Assembly: GCA_965205675.1 (NCBI GenBank)
Contig: OZ242186.1
Coordinates: 1,824,001-1,888,000 of the forward strand
Length of the DNA stretch: 64,000 bases
Direction: 5' to 3'
From: Nitrosopumilus sp.
GTDB lineage: Archaea; Thermoproteota; Nitrososphaeria; Nitrososphaerales; Nitrosopumilaceae
In this document: in pieces, positions 24,519-35,829 of the stretch
How positions within the stretch are numbered: position 1 is the first letter of the stretch
Layout: each line of letters opens with the position of its first letter
Translations under genes and position numbers: made by a program
The notes under the pieces: model-generated
Told to the model about the DNA's origin: nothing
Database searches by the model: none
Seen by the model: only the letters and a program-made list of their open reading frames with translations

Positions 24519-27500
24519 CTAGTTAACACTTACAGTTGTACTGATTGGTGGTGATAGAGCTGTTGGGTTATCTACTGATTCCCATACGAATGCGGTAACA
24601 GTGTATGTACCACTTTCAGTTGGATTCCAGGATACCGCTGAGCTAAATGACTGATCAGAAGATAGTGTACCGGTGAGCCAGTCTAGTTTGACTGTGACAC
24701 CATTGCCATCTTGAATCTGTACCAAGTATGCGAATGTTTGCTCTCTATCCTGACCATTTCTTAAATCAGCGCTGACTTGTACCTGTTGGTCAACGGAAAC
24801 AATATCTAAACTGTTGCCGAATGCATCAACGGCTCTCAAGTTAGTAGCTGGTACTCTCTCGAGAGGTGGTACTGTAGTGCCGATTATCGAAGTGGCAGTA
24901 ACATTAAGTTCATCTGCAGTTGTGTACGGATTTGGTAGTGTATTGTCCTCATATTCTGCGGTGACAGTGTCACCTTCTGCGACTCTGAGTCTATGACCGG
25001 ATGACTCTTCGGTGGTTGTGAAGAACACAACACCTTCGAAGATTCCAGTTGCCTCATTAGTCTCATTTACAGTAAGGTCAATACCTCCAACATCAGAATC
25101 AGACCACACATCGACACTAAAGTTGTCGACGGCTTCTGGATTCAAATTCATGTCTGGATCAATTATTCTTACAACGCCTGAGCCGCTAGCTGGATAGCTA
25201 GCTTCTAACCATTGAGTTTCACCAATATTCCATCTAATTAATGCTGAACCGACTACAGTTTCATTATCTGAGAATTCAAAAGATACTGCAAGTCCGTCAT
25301 CATCATCAGCAGGTAAGAATCCATTTGTTGGACCATCACCTCGTGGCTCTTCATCAATTACATCATTACCATTGTTATCACCAGTAGAACTGTCACCATC
25401 AGCATCATGTCTGAAACCAGTAAGGATAACCTCACCAGTGAAGATGCCTGTGTCAGTTCCAGTTTCGACTAACTTGTATTCGTCAAGTTCGGCACCTCTA
25501 GTGGAGACCTTTAATGGATCTTCATTAGTGTCGCCAATCTCATCGACCAAGTCACTGTCAAAGTTGTGATCTGGAGCTACAACAGTAATGTATACTTTGT
25601 CAGTCCAAGTGTATACTTTTTGATCAAGTTCTATAGTTGCACCAAAGTTAGAAGTAAAGACTGTCAAGTTGACATCTTCATCCTCATGACCTACATAATC
25701 TGCTCCTGATGGACCCCAATCAGTATATTCCAATTCGATTTCTTCGCCTCTTTCAAGACGATCACCGCCTAATTCTTCAGGGATTTCGATAACAATCTGG
25801 AAGATACCAGTACTGTCACCTGTCTCTCTAAAGTTACTTGGTTCAGGGTCAAATGCTGCTGCATTAGCCTCTCCACTCTGGTCTCCCATAGTGGTAGTGG
25901 CAGCGTCGCTATCCCATTCAATCAAGTCTAGGTCAAATGTTTCTGCTTGATCATTATCCAAATCAAAGTCTGGTTCAATGAGTGTCAGAATCATATCTGA
26001 GCCTATAATATAGACGGATTTGTCAGTTTGTAATACACCGTTTCTAAGGTCAAATGTTGCAGAGTCAGTAATGGTGTTTTCGTCACCGGATGCATCAGTT
26101 GGATCATTATATTCTACAGTAAGAATATCTCCTTGCAAAATACAATTTTGTGATGTTCCATTCATAATATGTGATACAGCATCATCATTACTGGCTGGAC
26201 ATTGTGTACTTGCAGGACCATCTGTAAATTCTATTGGTAGATCAAGTTCGAATATTCCTGAATCAGGTGCAGTCTCAAGGATTGGACCATACTCACGAGT
26301 ATTGTCTTGAACATTATCACCAATAGTTATGAAATCATTAGCACCTAAAGAAGCCTCTTCTGCACCTGCTGTTCCCAGCATTACAGTAGATGAACCTCTA
26401 GTGACCATGATTCTTACAGGACCATTAGTAGCATCTTCGGCAATTTGATCAGCACCACTTCCAGAGACATCATAGTCAGGATCATTAACTCTTACATGAA
26501 CAGTTAATATACCAGATTCCAAATGATGTCCTTCTTCAGTTACATCGTCATCACCAATTGCAGTTGCATGAACTGGGAATTGGGAAGGATTAGATTCACC
26601 ATTTGCACCATCATCTGGTTGTCCAAATGGAACAGGATAAACAGTTCTATCAAGTGAAACAGAACCAGTTGTGGCTCTAATTCCTGCACTGTCACCTACT
26701 TCAATTGTTTCACCAGAGGCATCTCTAAAGTCTTGATAATTAACCTCAAGATCCAAACCGGTTACAGAAACTGGTTCTTCACCAACGCCTGGACAGTATT
26801 GTTCTGGTATTTGGAAATCAGTAGTAAAGATACCGGTATCAGAACCAGTTTCTTTTAGACTACTAATCACACTACCTAAACCGCCAATGTCTGAATTTTC
26901 AGGACAATTAGATGCTGTCCATTTAGTATCATCAAATGTTACATCTAATAGAAGTGATCTGGCTTGGTCTGAAAGTGCAATAGTATCAGTTGTAGAAGTT
27001 CCATCAGTTACTACTGTATAGATATCTATAACATCACTATCGGTATTAAGATCTCTATCTTCAAGTGTGATTACAACAGTATCTGCTACTTTGTAATTAT
27101 CACCATCAAAGGAGACTATACCAGAATATGTTAGAGCATCAATTTTGTCAGAGACTTGGGTTGAAACACCTTGGCCATCTGTATCAAAGTAAATTACTTC
27201 AACTCCATCTTCATCAGTCAAATCTTCATGAACAATTATGTCCAACTCGTCACCAATGGTTTCAAGTCCACCATATGTATCTTGATCGAAGATATTGATT
27301 TGATTAAGCATTACATATTCTATTGTACCTGCATAAACACCTGTATTGACATCAGTTTCTTCTGCTTCAAATCTATAGATAGCATCGTTGTGTCTGGTTC
27401 CATCTGCTTCTTCTCCAAAAGTAAATACATCTAATGCGATATTATATGTAGTACCATTTTGGTTACCCTCAGGTAATGAAGTGGCCAATTCTATTCGTAA

Positions 27501-29681
27501 ATCTCCGGCAAATTCATTGGCAAATGTTGATGAGTTTAGATAAAAGAGGCCTTGAGGCATAACGGGGAGTGTTTCGTCACCGCCGTTAATACCATACAAA
27601 CGAATAGTTGTATCACCCAATGATCTAACATCATAGTTAACATATTGGTGAACACCTGGTTCATCCTCAAATTCGTTTAGGAAACTTGAATCAACTCCAG
27701 TGCTAATCGTGATAATTGGATTATCCGGTAATTCTGTGTCTCCTGTATTAATATTGAAGATTTTTCCAAATACTCTTTGACTCTCCTCAATGTTATCTAG
27801 AGAAGGATCAGCTATCCGCATGATTAGCGTCGTGATTTCGTTCTCTAAAGTGGTTTTTTCTGTTTCTAGATTATCTAGAGCAGCTCTCAAGTCCGCAATA
27901 CCAGCTCGTTGGGTAGAATTAAACAATCTATCAATATCTGTATCAACCTCAGCTAGCATTGCTTCTGAACTGTCAACAGCAGCTTGAGCGTTGGCAAGCG
28001 CAGTTGAGGAAGGTGAGTCGAGGTCGCCAAGAATGTCAAGTGCATTCTGATCCTCATCTAATTGATCTTGGTATGTGATTCTGTTGGCATTAAGTGAATC
28101 ATACTCAGTTCGATCAGTCTCATCAAGTTCATCAAAGATATCCTGTAAAGATGTGTTGTTACCAGCAATGAAACCAGTATTAACAGATAAATTCGCTCTT
28201 GCAGTATCTAGGCTCTCCCTTAGCATTTCATTAGTATCATCTTGAATTGTAACATCAGTTATTGCTTCAAGAGTAAATGGATTACCAATCAATACACTTG
28301 GGATTTGATCATATGTATCATCTGAAAGATTAAAGTCATCTTCTCTTAATGTGTTCTTGTTTTCATCTTGATCTCTAATAATAACTGTTAAAGGTTCGCC
28401 AGAACCCCAGTCAGATTCAATACTAGTAAGATCCAATTCAACATCACCTAAGAAGAATGAGACAAGTCTATTTACAGTCGTATCATTGTAATCTACAATA
28501 AAGTCGACATCACGAATGTCTTCGTTATCTGTTGTTCGGATAATTGAATCATGATTGTTATCTGTACTGGAAAACACACCACTATTTGGATTTGTTTCCT
28601 GGACAGTAACAAGTTGGGCATCGACATTTAGTGTACCATTGAATACAGCATCATTATATAATGGTGTAGCATTTTGATCATCGTTATCACCAAATAGTAA
28701 TACTAGATCAGAATTTGGACTAGGATTGATAATTAGAAAACCATTGTCGCCATAATCTGCTTCATTTAATGCGTCTTCATAGTTAATTAAATTATCTATA
28801 TTGTCACCTAGTGTAGACGTTCCACTTTCACTAAAGATTCTATAGTATGCATCATTTGATCCATTTGTGGCAAATGTCCAAATATCCTCATCAGTAGGAT
28901 CAATGTTTAATTGATTGTCACTGATGGTTAAATGAACATCTGCATTATGTGGATAGGTATCTCTATCAAAAGAGAAATCTGCAAAGTCATCCATAGAATC
29001 TTCATAGCTTATGTTAATCTGTTGTGAGTTACCGCCTGTATTGTAAATTACTTCGACGTTTGAATCATCGGCAAAGTCATCAAATGTTTGAATGAAAGGC
29101 CAGAATGCTGTATTATTTAGTCCAGCGTTACCAAGAGTAACAAAGGTACTAAATACATCAGTTGGTTCTTTTGCATTTCCAAGTACATTGATTACACCGG
29201 GATTAATTGTCCCTGCAGTTGTATTACACGTATTTGCATTTACATAAACAGTAGCGCTAGCGTCAAAGTCTGCGTCAATAATGTTATTAGCTTGTTCACT
29301 AGGACATATAGTACCAAAGTCTAAGCCAACACCAACATCAGCAGTACCAACATCATCAACAATTGCTACATTGCCTTGATGGGCAACATAAGCATACCAA
29401 TATCCATCAGTGGCTTGAATTAATCTTAATTCATTACCATTAATAGTTACGTCAGGTTCAGCCTCATTCTCATCAGTTTGTGAGTAATTAGGATCTCTAA
29501 CTATAACTTCAACGATCATTGGTCCACCAAATGTGGTGGTTGACACATACAGATTTGCAGTAGATTTTGAATCAGCACTAACATCAGGAATGACACCTGG
29601 AATTGCAAAGGTTAAACCCCCTGCGACCATGATGGTCATAAGTGTTAGACTAGTTATTTTTCGTAGTTTTTCGTTATACAT
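24519..29681 (-). CDS. Major S-layer protein (Nitrosopumilus type)
   Basis: 1720 aa, highly acidic; KITSLTLMTIMVAGGLTFAIPG signal; repeated ETGxxTGIF Ig-like motifs; C-terminal TAFVWESVDNPTALSPP. Confidence 0.9.
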   Translation of the reverse strand: MYNEKLRKITSLTLMTIMVAGGLTFAIPGVIPDVSADSKSTANLYVSTTTFGGPMIVEVIVRDPNYSQTDENEAEPDVTINGNELRLIQATDGYWYAYVAHQGNVAIVDDVGTADVGVGLDFGTICPSEQANNIIDADFDASATVYVNANTCNTTAGTINPGVINVLGNAKEPTDVFSTFVTLGNAGLNNTAFWPFIQTFDDFADDSNVEVIYNTGGNSQQINISYEDSMDDFADFSFDRDTYPHNADVHLTISDNQLNIDPTDEDIWTFATNGSNDAYYRIFSESGTSTLGDNIDNLINYEDALNEADYGDNGFLIINPSPNSDLVLLFGDNDDQNATPLYNDAVFNGTLNVDAQLVTVQETNPNSGVFSSTDNNHDSIIRTTDNEDIRDVDFIVDYNDTTVNRLVSFFLGDVELDLTSIESDWGSGEPLTVIIRDQDENKNTLREDDFNLSDDTYDQIPSVLIGNPFTLEAITDVTIQDDTNEMLRESLDTARANLSVNTGFIAGNNTSLQDIFDELDETDRTEYDSLNANRITYQDQLDEDQNALDILGDLDSPSSTALANAQAAVDSSEAMLAEVDTDIDRLFNSTQRAGIADLRAALDNLETEKTTLENEITTLIMRIADPSLDNIEESQRVFGKIFNINTGDTELPDNPIITISTGVDSSFLNEFEDEPGVHQYVNYDVRSLGDTTIRLYGINGGDETLPVMPQGLFYLNSSTFANEFAGDLRIELATSLPEGNQNGTTYNIALDVFTFGEEADGTRHNDAIYRFEAEETDVNTGVYAGTIEYVMLNQINIFDQDTYGGLETIGDELDIIVHEDLTDEDGVEVIYFDTDGQGVSTQVSDKIDALTYSGIVSFDGDNYKVADTVVITLEDRDLNTDSDVIDIYTVVTDGTSTTDTIALSDQARSLLLDVTFDDTKWTASNCPENSDIGGLGSVISSLKETGSDTGIFTTDFQIPEQYCPGVGEEPVSVTGLDLEVNYQDFRDASGETIEVGDSAGIRATTGSVSLDRTVYPVPFGQPDDGANGESNPSQFPVHATAIGDDDVTEEGHHLESGILTVHVRVNDPDYDVSGSGADQIAEDATNGPVRIMVTRGSSTVMLGTAGAEEASLGANDFITIGDNVQDNTREYGPILETAPDSGIFELDLPIEFTDGPASTQCPASNDDAVSHIMNGTSQNCILQGDILTVEYNDPTDASGDENTITDSATFDLRNGVLQTDKSVYIIGSDMILTLIEPDFDLDNDQAETFDLDLIEWDSDAATTTMGDQSGEANAAAFDPEPSNFRETGDSTGIFQIVIEIPEELGGDRLERGEEIELEYTDWGPSGADYVGHEDEDVNLTVFTSNFGATIELDQKVYTWTDKVYITVVAPDHNFDSDLVDEIGDTNEDPLKVSTRGAELDEYKLVETGTDTGIFTGEVILTGFRHDADGDSSTGDNNGNDVIDEEPRGDGPTNGFLPADDDDGLAVSFEFSDNETVVGSALIRWNIGETQWLEASYPASGSGVVRIIDPDMNLNPEAVDNFSVDVWSDSDVGGIDLTVNETNEATGIFEGVVFFTTTEESSGHRLRVAEGDTVTAEYEDNTLPNPYTTADELNVTATSIIGTTVPPLERVPATNLRAVDAFGNSLDIVSVDQQVQVSADLRNGQDREQTFAYLVQIQDGNGVTVKLDWLTGTLSSDQSFSSAVSWNPTESGTYTVTAFVWESVDNPTALSPPISTTVSVN

Positions 29682-32899: not shown

Positions 32900-34203
32900 T
32901 TAGATGTATTTTGCCATCTCAGAAAACATATTCAACTCCCTTATCCTCCATGTTTCAAAGCATGTTAAAAATATAGAAAGCATCCTCATTCCCTGATTGC
33001 TTTTCATCTGTCCGCGAACATTTCTCTGCATGATACACTTTTGAATAGAATTTTCAGTGTCATTGTTAGTTGATGGAATACAGGGATATTTCACAAATGT
33101 AAACAGACTATTTCTTGCAGTTTTTAGTTTCTTACCAAACTGAATCATTTCTTTATCACCTGACATGTATTGACATATTATAGAATCTGTTTGTTTTAGT
33201 AAATTCAACGCATATCTTTTACGTTGTTTCTCTGAATGTTCTTGTATGCTATACCGTCTTGCACGATGCAATGGTTTTGAGAGTTTTCCATAAATGGTTT
33301 TAGCCTGTTTATCATTTGATTTTCTTGCAAGATATTTTGCATCACGCTGCAGATGTGCAGTGCATCTCTGTTTTACATTATCACAAAATACCGTTCTGTA
33401 TGGAGCATATCCATCAGATATTAAAATCCCTGAGAATTTCTTCCAACATTTTTTTAGGATTTTAGCACCTCTACTGTACTCTAAAGTGTGATGAGCTTCT
33501 GTTTTGCTTCTTGCAACCTAACACCCAATCCAGTCTTTCCGTCAATTGGAAATGCTGTCTCATCCATTCCAAGAATCTTTTCAGTCACGATTTCACTACT
33601 AATGTCATGGTACAATGGTTCTAACATAATACTGCCAGTGCGAAGAATAGATTGTACTGTAGTGCAGCTAATTTTCAATCCATATCTTTCTTGAAGAGTT
33701 ACTCTAATGGTATCGTATGGCATTCTCTTTGAGAATAATGAGACTGCCTCACGTATTGCAGAGGAATCAAAGCATCCACATGGTGGAAGATTTCCATCTG
33801 TCTTGAAACTATCAGAGCAGTTCTTGCAATTATACTGATACAAGACATGCTCAGTTGCAATGTATTGAGTTGGTGGAGGGATTTCAACCATTATTCTTTT
33901 GGCAGTCTTGGTTTGAAGGATATCTTCACTTCCACATTTGGGGCATTCTAAACATTTGTGATGTATGGTACTAGTTGGGGTGAATTTCTGTGTTGTGCCC
34001 TTGTGACCTGGTATGCCACCACGTTTTGATTTGCCAGAATCAGAATCTCTGTTTTTCTTTGCATCTTGTTTCTATTTTTTCCATTCAAGTGAATTTTTTG
34101 ATGGTGGCGAGTGTGGATTTTCATAGTATGATAATTTTTGCGTGAGTTGTTTTACTTTTTCTTGTAATTGTAAGATGATTTTCTCATGACCACACTCTGA
34201 CAT
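32900..34203 (-). pseudogene. IS66-family single-ORF transposase with an internal stop and frameshifts
   Basis: MSECGHEKII...NPHSPPS, GGIPGHKG, CPKC, MPY, GMDET, ISDGY, PSTNNDTE; TAG near 34072. Confidence 0.88.
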
Positions 34204-34414
34204 GTATTGTAGAATGATTTAGATGATCTTTGATTTTTTGTGTAATGGTATTGATTTATGTGTGAAGCTTGATACATACTTGAAAACGTGGTTTTAATTC
34301 TATTTTCATAATTATGGTTCCAGATCGCTAAATATCCCATAATCAACAAATTAACATAAAATGTCAATAATCCTAGCGTGGATATTTTATCTCGTAATTT
34401 GAATAGGAAAACTC

Positions 34415-34501
34415 GTTGGGTTCGCCAAGTTAGGTATGACGAGTGTCTGAAAAACACTATCTGTTACCACGGATACATGGGTTCAAATCCCATACCCAAC
34501 G
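34415..34501 (+). tRNA. Type II tRNA with Ser-like body and GAA (Phe) anticodon; variant or pseudo tRNA-Ser(GGA)
   Basis: GTTGGGT/ACCCAAC acceptor, G73, AGTGT-CTGAAAA-ACACT anticodon arm, long paired variable arm, ATGGG-TTCAAAT-CCCAT T arm; one D-stem mismatch. Confidence 0.85.
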
Positions 34502-34784
34502 GGTTATGATATCTATCTAATTATTAATCATAAAAACATTTGTGAGTTTTTAGGTTCAAGAATTATTCTAAAAATGATAAATAAACCAATAGTTTAGAGT
34601 TGGTTTCCTGCCAACAACTTAGTGCTAACTATTAGTTTCTACTCAAAAAAAGATCGCAATAGAAACCTATTGGTTTTTAATTAGGCATAAAAATAGTTAT
34701 CATTACAAAATATTCATAATTTTAATTACTTGTTGTTATTTTTACAAGTTTACAGTTATTACATATTAATTATGAGTATTATTT

Positions 34785-34982: not shown

Positions 34983-35829
34983 ACCCATCTAATGTTTTAA
35001 CATAATTACAATTTTTACACTTGTAAAATATCAAACCATTTGAATGAGTTGTTATTTTGATAGGCTCATTTTTTATACATTCAGGATAATTAATGTCATG
35101 TTGTGTTTTCAATACTTACTATTACAAAATAAGTATAAAAACACATTAGTGGGGTATGAATCAAGTCATCTATCCCATCAGGAACAAAAATGGAAACTGA
35201 AAACAAATTCTAGACGTGAGGCTTGATACATACAGGTTTTTAGTTATTTTAGCAAAAAGATGTTTTTGCCAATAAATTATAATTCCAATTATTATTAGAA
35301 CAGTTATTGCAATAGTTGGAATTGCTATGATAAGGCAATGAAGAATCAGATACAAAAGAAATTAAAAGTTTTGTGATGAAAAATTAAATGATAGCAAAAA
35401 TTGAAGATAAGATAGACCAAGGGTTTTAAACGCAAATTTAGAAGGTGGACATATGCCTAAACTAAGAGAACAGATTACATCTGGATCATTTAAAATTAAT
35501 CGAAATGAATACGTCTTAGGTGAAAAATTTCATGATAACTAGAGGCTTGGATTTTAATAAAAAAAGAAGAGACAAAGTTTCTAAGACTGTCATCTAATGG
35601 TGTATACATTATTTAGTGTATTTGATTAGTTCTTTTGATAGAGTAGATTTAGCAGGAATTGAACTATTATTTAGATTCAAAGCTTTCAAAAATTAACAGG
35701 TATTGTACTACAGAGAATTTTATTGGAGAGGGATAATGTTTAGGAGAACAGATTATTCAAACTTGAGTTTAAGATAACAGATGAAATTATACCAGATGAT
35801 GATAAAATTATGAACCAGTATGTTATAGA

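Follow-up and report, generated by a model that had tools for sequence, protein, structure and literature searches.

What does a transfer RNA (tRNA) gene do when its body is of serine type and its anticodon is that of phenylalanine? The question is raised by a gene at positions 34415-34501 (+) of the window, the 64,000-nucleotide (nt) stretch of Nitrosopumilus sp. contig OZ242186.1 (assembly GCA_965205675.1) analyzed here. A first-pass annotation, made from the letters of the DNA, had described a serine-bodied tRNA with the anticodon GAA, potentially mistranslating and carried on a mobile element, or alternatively a decaying tRNA-Ser(GGA). To our knowledge, natural tRNAs whose body and anticodon disagree are rare and are found mainly as bacterial allo-tRNAs, in CTG-clade yeasts and as single human alleles. 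We find that the locus is an intact, well-folded gene for an accessory class II tRNA with a GAA anticodon.

The gene covers tRNA positions 1-73, ends without an encoded CCA and contains every structural element that had been read from the sequence. Its acceptor stem is fully paired (7/7; GTTGGGT 34415-34421 with ACCCAAC 34494-34500) and is followed by the discriminator base G73 (G34501); U8, C9 and G26 are present. The D arm (34424-34440) reads GCCA-AGTTAGGTA-TGAC, with a stem of 4 base pairs (bp), one of them the mismatch C34425.A34439, and a 9-nt loop containing G18G19. The anticodon stem AGTGT/ACACT presents the loop CTGAAAA (34447-34453), in which GAA occupies 34449-34451 and is followed by A37, as compared to G37 in the canonical tRNA-Phe of the host. 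The variable region spans 18 nt (34459-34476) and consists of the arm proper, ATCTGT-TACC-ACGGAT (34459-34474; a 6-bp stem with a TACC loop), and a final AC. The T arm, ATGGG-TTCAAAT-CCCAT, has a 5-bp stem. ARAGORN calls the gene tRNA-Phe(gaa) at 34414-34502, and Rfam RF00005 aligns over model positions 1-71 of 71 with 48.3 bits against a gathering score of 29 (E = 3e-07 for the window), flagging the D-stem pair as the sole non-standard pair. The centroid of the single-strand fold of 34409-34507 is a cloverleaf with the variable arm and an extended acceptor helix (z-score -3.88), and none of 200 shuffles equals it. We rejected the possibility that the long arm is an archaeal intron misread by a tRNA finder in bacterial mode; the arm is a plain stem-loop with no bulge-helix-bulge form, and ARAGORN with introns permitted and Rfam agree on the class II fold.

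The GAA anticodon is genuine. Strain variation was checked in public contigs from four runs (X1-X4) of two studies, and these show no alternative letter at 34449-34451. At 34439 the same contigs carry G in place of A, over the entire depth in X1-X3 and in 11.4 of 14.5 in X4, so the D-stem mismatch is private to the window strain.

The host is a member of the Nitrosopumilaceae with a single-contig genome (contig C1 below) of 2.01 Mb and ~32% G+C. Its genome encodes multi-cupredoxin proteins, and its tRNA genes are dispersed, several of them bearing introns. A canonical tRNA-Phe(GAA) lies at C1:1563605-1563679. The canonical tRNA-Ser(GGA), located at C1:1663223-1663323, contains an intron of 14 nt, and genes for Ser GCT, CGA and TGA are present as well. 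The presence of both separate genes, a check that the first-pass annotation had proposed, means that the window tRNA is an extra gene and not the sole decoder for Phe or Ser(GGA). The genome encodes, at C1:284.3-287.6 kb, one seryl-tRNA synthetase (SerRS) with an N-terminal arm-binding domain and no second SerRS, while the alpha subunit of phenylalanyl-tRNA synthetase (PheRS) is represented by one clear match and one marginal 19.6-bit match. The window tRNA resembles the host tRNA-Ser(GGA) in its class II fold, its G73 and the one base between G19 and A21, and its anticodon loop differs from the Ser(GGA) loop CUGGAAA at position 35 only. The two differ in anticodon, in intron content (the window tRNA has none), in the AT-richer stems and extended leader-trailer helix of the window tRNA, in the variable arm (18 nt versus 15 nt with a GCAA loop) and in the lack of an encoded CCA in the window tRNA; overall identity is 66%. 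With the host tRNA-Phe the window tRNA shares GAA, C32 and U33, whereas tRNA-Phe is a class I molecule, GC-rich in its stems, with A73, G37 and a variable loop of 5 nt, and identity is 50-55%.

The window copy is one of four paralogues in this genome, the others being C1:1794332-1794417 (+), C1:1261574-1261656 (-) and C1:533584-533670 (-). A long variable arm and a YTGAAAA loop with the anticodon GAA are common to all four. In the window copy, 1794332 and 1261574 the body is followed by G-GGTT; 533584 has T at position 73 and then GATTT. Two paralogues carry T-stem mismatches and 533584 is more degenerate, and among the four it is the window copy that scores highest with Rfam (48.3 versus 44.8, 43.3 and 34.0). 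A covariance model, R1, was built from nine sequences with 6-nt flanks, the window sequence included (which itself scores 104.3 bits), and was run against 151 genomes of GTDB family f1, the own genome included and three unpublished genomes (G077, G092 and G093) counted in the denominator only. Members, taken as matches of at least 76.8 bits, occur in 7 of the 151: four in the own genome (G000), three in G030, two in G020 and one each in G038, G073, G091 and G109. The next-best matches, at or below 73.9 bits, are canonical tRNA-Ser(GCT) in 11 of 11 loci examined. In a class-wide sample, R1 at E <= 1e-15 matched 8 of 151 genomes including the own one, all Nitrosopumilaceae (7/80), and none of 70 genomes from 11 other families. 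Among the genomes sampled the family is thus confined to Nitrosopumilaceae, where it is patchy and often multi-copy or tandem.

Public records extend this picture. A pattern of acceptor stem plus D-stem start gave 92 matches; among the 80 loci listed, 16 hold a tRNA, all labeled Thaumarchaeota, Nitrosopumilus or Nitrosotalea, with GAA in 17 of 17 tRNAs. Two records contain tandem arrays of three to five copies, repeating every ~290 nt (three copies in L204, four to five in L207/L208). DUF4326 and MT-A70 genes follow these arrays, and the L207/L208 contig, labeled Leptonemataceae, has sequence of thaumarchaeal type and may be mis-binned. Known phage records gave no family match, and the commonest acceptor/T-arm pattern of the family had 0 matches in viral contigs. 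As a separate observation, a pattern of loop plus long arm found class II, G73, GAA tRNAs outside the family, in 10 of 27 genome loci beyond Thaumarchaeota-labeled records. The labels of these outside records include Bathyarchaeia, Woesearchaeota, Micrarchaeota, Solibacteraceae (Acidobacteria), Peregrinibacteria and a deltaproteobacterium (L062, L070, L071, L074, L076, L080, L082 and L086 in public genomes; L264, L269-L271, L274 and L276 in metagenomes). Some of these tRNAs encode CCA, have typical Ser bodies and look like ordinary Ser(GGA) with G35A.

Comparison within the family shows what has been kept. An alignment of nine sequences (A2) has 90.6% of its cells paired and double changes in 15 of 26 pairs, covariation extends to all five pairs of the anticodon stem, and none of 500 shuffles attains the A2 values. 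A larger alignment, A3, holds 62 matches, 55 of them distinct, from the window, its relatives, public genomes, metagenomes and two virus-classed contigs. In A3, fitted to R1 and to that extent somewhat favoring structure, 93.7% of cells are paired, and compensatory (double) changes have affected 22 of the 26 stem pairs; slid partners pair at 36-45% and no shuffle comes near. The T-stem pair 49:65, for example, is AU in 22 sequences, GC in 22 and GU in 10. The bases of tertiary contact (U8, A14, G18G19, G53:C61 and the TTCRAAT loop) are intact. Against this changing body stands a nearly constant anticodon loop: CTGAAAA in 40 of the 55, TTGAAAA in 13, CTGAAGA in one and CTGATAA in one, a degenerate tandem copy. 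YTGAAAA is therefore found in 53/55 and GAA in 54/55. Because 30 of the 55 were found solely by a pattern that fixes the loop, the other 25 were counted separately; 24 of these, recovered by BLAST, R1 or body-only patterns, have GAA. A cloverleaf kept by compensatory changes together with a near-invariant YUGAAAA loop means that selection acts on the RNA and on the role of its anticodon loop.

Which amino acid such a tRNA would carry depends on identity features that here form a hybrid set, judged from sequence, with the long arm, G73 and G30:C40 for serine and G34, A35 and A36 for phenylalanine. Serine identity resides in the variable arm and G73, with a weaker contribution of G30:C40 in archaea, while the anticodon is ignored, and Ser tRNAs with altered anticodons mistranslate (PMC9976931). 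In human and yeast cells, Ser tRNAs given Phe or Pro anticodons stay serylated and mistranslate (PMC12993449, PMC6827378). The window tRNA has the long arm and G73 but no serine anticodon (NGA or GCU), and its D loop has Ser geometry as opposed to the longer Leu type. In the family, G73 is found in 50/55 sequences, G30:C40 in 44/55 and A37, as in the host Ser(GGA), in 54/55. When R1 is run on the own genome, Ser-GCT (64.0 bits) and Ser-GGA (58.5) are the top canonical tRNAs, followed by Leu-TAG (53.2), Ser-TGA (50.9), Ser-CGA (49.9), Leu-GAG (45.2) and Leu-CAA (41.9), so that Ser-TGA and Ser-CGA fall among the Leu tRNAs; the canonical tRNA-Phe has no match at E <= 0.01. These results bear out the serine-type body of the earlier description. 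An archaeal tRNA-Leu does not fit, given G73 and a family variable loop that ends in CCUC as compared to AGG in host Leu tRNAs. We rank charging with serine first, though tentatively, charging with phenylalanine second and unlikely, and a role outside ordinary translation third and less likely still.

A TATA-like ATTTTAT (34384-34390, +), identified by eye and conserved in the paralogues, lies 25-31 nt upstream of position 1, and a by-eye comparison finds A/T-rich boxes at the same spacing in canonical tRNA genes of the genome. A conserved unit of ~225 nt (34345-34567, +) takes in the promoter region, the tRNA and ~65 nt downstream, and matches C1:1794262-1794485 at 75%, C1:533543-533732 at 70% and a same-genus genome at 77%; among these four, ~70 nt upstream and ~65 nt downstream are kept. 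Positions 73, 74 and 75 are G in 50/55, 53/55 and 48/55 family sequences, and the T-rich stretch after this GGG probably terminates transcription. As the first-pass annotation had seen, the flanks extend the acceptor helix. The leader AACTC (34410-34414, +) pairs with GGGTT (34501-34505, +), that is, G73 plus the trailer GGTT, and the centroid fold contains these 5 additional bp.

Taken together, the reading we lean towards, with less than even confidence, is that the window tRNA is serylated, causes low-level Phe-to-Ser mistranslation and is spread by mobile elements. The gene would be transcribed from its own TATA-like promoter, with the transcript ending at the T-run after GGG and then being trimmed and receiving CCA. 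The single SerRS, which ignores the anticodon, would charge the product by virtue of the long variable arm, G73 and G30:C40. Ribosomes would use this tRNA to decode UUC and UUU, so that serine is inserted in competition with canonical tRNA-Phe, giving mistranslation at a low level, and mobile elements and viruses would spread the gene.

Several observations weigh against this reading. It is hard to see how selection would keep a proteome-wide mistranslator in up to four copies, and the window copy itself bears a D-stem mismatch. The presence of G34, A35 and A36, together with A73 in 4/55 members, means that PheRS may charge the family. Plain identity, at 62-70% to both Ser and Leu tRNAs, does not separate the two. 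Family variable regions of 13-22 nt share a conserved ...CCUC-GGAU motif, whereas the Ser tRNAs seen in the host and its relatives all have a 15-nt arm, mostly with a GCAA-type tetraloop. The conserved 5-bp leader-trailer helix, including -1:73, could hinder normal processing or yield an 8-bp acceptor stem. As for spread by mobile elements, there is no integrase within 6.5 kb of the members in G073, G109, G020 and G091, and on soil-type metagenome contigs the gene recurs in conserved order among housekeeping genes (MetH-tRNA-MFS in two cases, BioB/BioF-tRNA-DsbD in two, and a tandem pair next to DUF359 and Mrp, again in two).

The alternative that survives best, which we nonetheless consider unlikely, is a supplementary class II tRNA-Phe that is charged by PheRS and decodes UUY correctly, harmless or even useful, for instance to an element or virus in an AT-rich host. 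A tRNA that is recognized by PheRS and decodes Phe codons has to preserve GAA and the loop, which are invariant here, and this explanation accounts for the tolerance of several copies. The four conserved Phe determinants comprise A73 and the anticodon bases G34, A35 and A36, which are major ones for PheRS, and a yeast tRNA-Tyr given GAA is charged by PheRS (PMC9976931). The four members with A73 complete this set, and a member in genome G030 (L053:8001-8100) has the loop CUGAAGA, whose G37 makes it that of canonical tRNA-Phe. Set against these points, the common G73 departs from a conserved Phe determinant, the near-universal A37 departs from the G37 of the host tRNA-Phe, and the window tRNA has U instead of G at position 20 and lacks the class I variable loop. 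The body as a whole is unlike tRNA-Phe, as seen in the R1 result and the low identity given above, and the combination of G73 and a long variable arm marks it as Ser by identity set. Use of Phe codons is also not raised on the two virus-classed contigs (35.8 per 1000 versus 40.1 in host genes).

We give a still lower probability to a tRNA-shaped RNA that works outside ordinary translation. Its 12-bp stem, or 8-bp acceptor if C-1 is kept, could block maturation or elongation-factor binding, and the RNA or DNA would serve mobile elements as attachment site, primer or decoy for an anticodon-loop enzyme. Including the leader-trailer pairs, the extended helix is 92.5% paired over the 55 family sequences and is family-specific: counted consecutively from -1:73, two own copies reach 5 and 7 pairs, as compared to 3 at most in the 41 other tRNAs of the genome; of the remaining two own copies, one pairs only through a one-base bulge and one lacks the pairing altogether. 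At position -1, C is found in 37/55 and U in 15/55 (C or U in 52/55), positions 73-75 are GGG, and three of the four A73 members carry U at -1; two of these three are near-identical, which makes the covariation weak. The helix may reflect a special maturation route, an 8-bp acceptor stem like that of bacterial tRNA-Sec, which weakens EF-Tu binding (PMC7609411), or the DNA core of an attachment site. Recurrent integrase, ParB/MT-A70 or DUF4326 genes on the 3' flank and a 22-bp repeat of the 3' end and trailer, 6 kb downstream of the paralogue C1:1261574, also speak for a role outside ordinary translation. However, compensatory changes in all four arms and intact tertiary-contact bases indicate that the RNA is L-shaped and accessible to the enzymes that act on tRNAs, conservation at a site serving purely for DNA attachment would be of sequence and not of pairing, and the anticodon loop has the canonical 7-nt form with U33.

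The weakest explanation, a decaying pseudogene of tRNA-Ser(GGA) with chance G-to-A changes, draws on the single transition (G35A) that separates GAA from GGA in a loop otherwise equal to that of the host Ser(GGA), on the D-stem mismatch, on the T-stem mismatches of two paralogues and on the degenerate C1:533584, but it is contradicted for the family, and very improbable, given GAA in 24/25 independently found relatives from several genera with compensated stem substitutions, the conserved promoter and trailer, the top Rfam score of the window copy among the four and only 66% identity to Ser(GGA).

A second mismatched tRNA, outside the window, bears on the preferred reading of a serylated tRNA. 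At C1:1307300-1307385 (-) (L258:8001-8086), ARAGORN calls Leu(taa), yet this UAA tRNA derives from a Ser tRNA. It shares the T arm and G73 with Ser(TGA) of the same genome, the acceptor stem and D arm of the two are nearly identical, and its loop CTTAAGA differs from the Ser(TGA) loop CTTGAGA at position 35 only (G35A). Its best matches in 40 family genomes are all Ser(TGA) or Ser(GCT), at 72-78% identity. No orthologue was detected in these 40 genomes, nor was the anticodon arm in 10 other genomes of the genus; one related, damaged copy occurs in another Nitrosopumilus record (L291). The gene adjoins an IS3-type transposase and a cluster with a secretion-type (T2SSE-type) ATPase. A canonical-looking tRNA-Leu(UAA) is located at ~C1:305289-305410 (+) (L259), with GGAGGAG/CTCCTCC, A73, a Leu-type variable arm and two insertions that are likely introns; it was missed by ARAGORN and Rfam and found by a T-arm/acceptor scan. 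Two independent Ser-derived A35 tRNAs in one genome make chance less likely and raise a bolder, speculative reading that we hold to be improbable on balance, in which ammonia-oxidizing archaea and their mobile elements or viruses maintain dedicated serine-accepting, UUN-reading tRNAs (the GAA family and, in this genome, the UAA tRNA) as a naturally selected device for sense-codon mistranslation or recoding in Archaea. Such a UUN device might be activated by element promoters, or the extended acceptor helix might keep it separate from bulk translation. Two other odd tRNA-like genes of 72 nt in the genome, C1:419548-419619 (-) and C1:541136-541207 (-), are related to each other and have odd anticodon arms (ARAGORN Leu-aag and Phe-gaa; Rfam 47.6 and 34.2 bits), and a partial tandem duplication adjoins the second.

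Among known systems, the allo-tRNAs of Clostridia, Proteobacteria and Acidobacteria are the closest parallel, combining Ser identity features with non-Ser anticodons, and some of them insert Ser at Leu codons in Escherichia coli (PMC5389517, PMC7609411). Like the GAA family, they have a long variable arm, G73 and a non-serine anticodon, and some are transposon-linked and polycistronic. They are bacterial, however, with an 8/4 or 9/3 acceptor/T arrangement and anticodons covering 35 codons (PMC5389517, PMC7609411), whereas the GAA family belongs to archaea and combines an acceptor stem of 7 bp and a T stem of 5 bp (8/5 if -1:73 is kept) with a single fixed anticodon; the window tRNA does not have the allo-tRNA domain. 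The human tRNA-Ser-AGA-2-3 G35A variant, tRNA-Ser(AAA), reads Phe codons and inserts serine (PMC12993449, PMC9956149), and the same step would turn Ser(GGA) into GAA. That variant is a recent single-gene allele present in ~2% of people (PMC12993449, PMC9956149), as opposed to a diverged family across archaeal genera with promoter and trailer features of its own. The D arm and anticodon rule out tRNA-Sec itself, the window tRNA having GAA and not UCA, and a 4-bp D stem with a 9-nt loop versus a 6-bp stem with a 4-nt loop. The GAA family shares patchiness, integrase islands at 3' ends, att-like repeats (resembling those at attachment sites) and copies on virus-classed contigs with the integration targets and element-borne tRNAs of Thaumarchaeota (PMC6563490). 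The two tRNA-Phe(GAA) targets in that survey have att cores unlike the family 3' end, and nothing in the searched text of Krupovic et al. 2019 (PMC6563490) refers to a class II GAA tRNA. Searches of the literature on Nitrosopumilus tRNAs and viruses, allo-tRNAs, mistranslation and anticodon shift, mostly at the level of abstracts, turned up no account of the GAA family.

The placement on a mobile element, as proposed by the first-pass annotation, holds only in part. The window tRNA is ~135 nt from the right end (~34279) of an IS66-family insertion sequence (IS) and 1.3 kb from the his operon, and the family is linked to mobile elements. The IS66 element was mapped by blastn and Pfam DDE_Tnp_IS66 to 32914-34279, strand unassigned, the left figure being the start of the query with the left end unmapped. 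Its transposase frame is in at least two pieces (32900-33271 and 33481-33891), and a 99.2% identical copy (blastn) is found at C1:1617173-1618541, with partial copies elsewhere. No integrase or bounding att repeat accompanies the window copy, there is no repeat of at least 12 nt beyond AT-rich chance words within 60 kb, and some family members, as described above, sit among housekeeping genes. A 101-amino-acid (aa) frame overlapping the tRNA (34152-34457, -) was considered as the N-terminal piece of a split SSV-type integrase and rejected, with no Pfam match above the cut-off (best E = 0.033).

Other members repeatedly have genes of mobile type on their 3' side. A rhodanese gene and then an integrase follow the own copy 1794332 and its syntenic counterpart in G038; ParB_N/MT-A70 methylase genes are found at own 1261574, own 533584, L204, L205 and L208; DUF4326 at L188, L203 and L204; an integrase at L196; and IS elements at L190, L197 and L200. 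For public loci, neighboring genes were scanned in 73 of 86 frames, omitting two bacterial-labeled loci and duplicates of one contig. In G030, the canonical tRNA-Phe is followed immediately by an integrase that opens an island, and one member lies 2.4 kb into this island. A member is also found on each of two IMG/VR contigs, in one of them immediately behind a Mu-F-like head-morphogenesis gene; with a completeness of 15-17%, both contigs could be provirus edges. The family 3' end is thus a recurrent insertion point for elements bearing integrase and ParB-methylase genes, and the safest conclusion is that the tRNA gene is accessory, has spread horizontally and offers a favored point of integration at its 3' end. 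Two further features of the window are recorded here. An 81-nt repeat at 35154-35234 has six other genome copies at 93-96% (C1:1894734, 894029, 175377, 734577, 734666 and 1290362) and no Rfam match, and a 1720-aa open frame at 24519-29681 (-) has no Pfam match at E <= 0.001.

Automatic annotation as plain "tRNA-Phe" hides genes of this kind and can mislead work on integration sites. If serylated, the family would offer a defined test pair, one tRNA with one SerRS or PheRS. Were PheRS to charge it, it would be the first class II tRNA-Phe and would show how far reading of the anticodon overrides the identity of the body. In either case, a family with a fixed Phe anticodon on a Ser-type body is kept by selection in globally important nitrifying archaea, and, if it is serylated, these archaea would tolerate or use sense-codon ambiguity.

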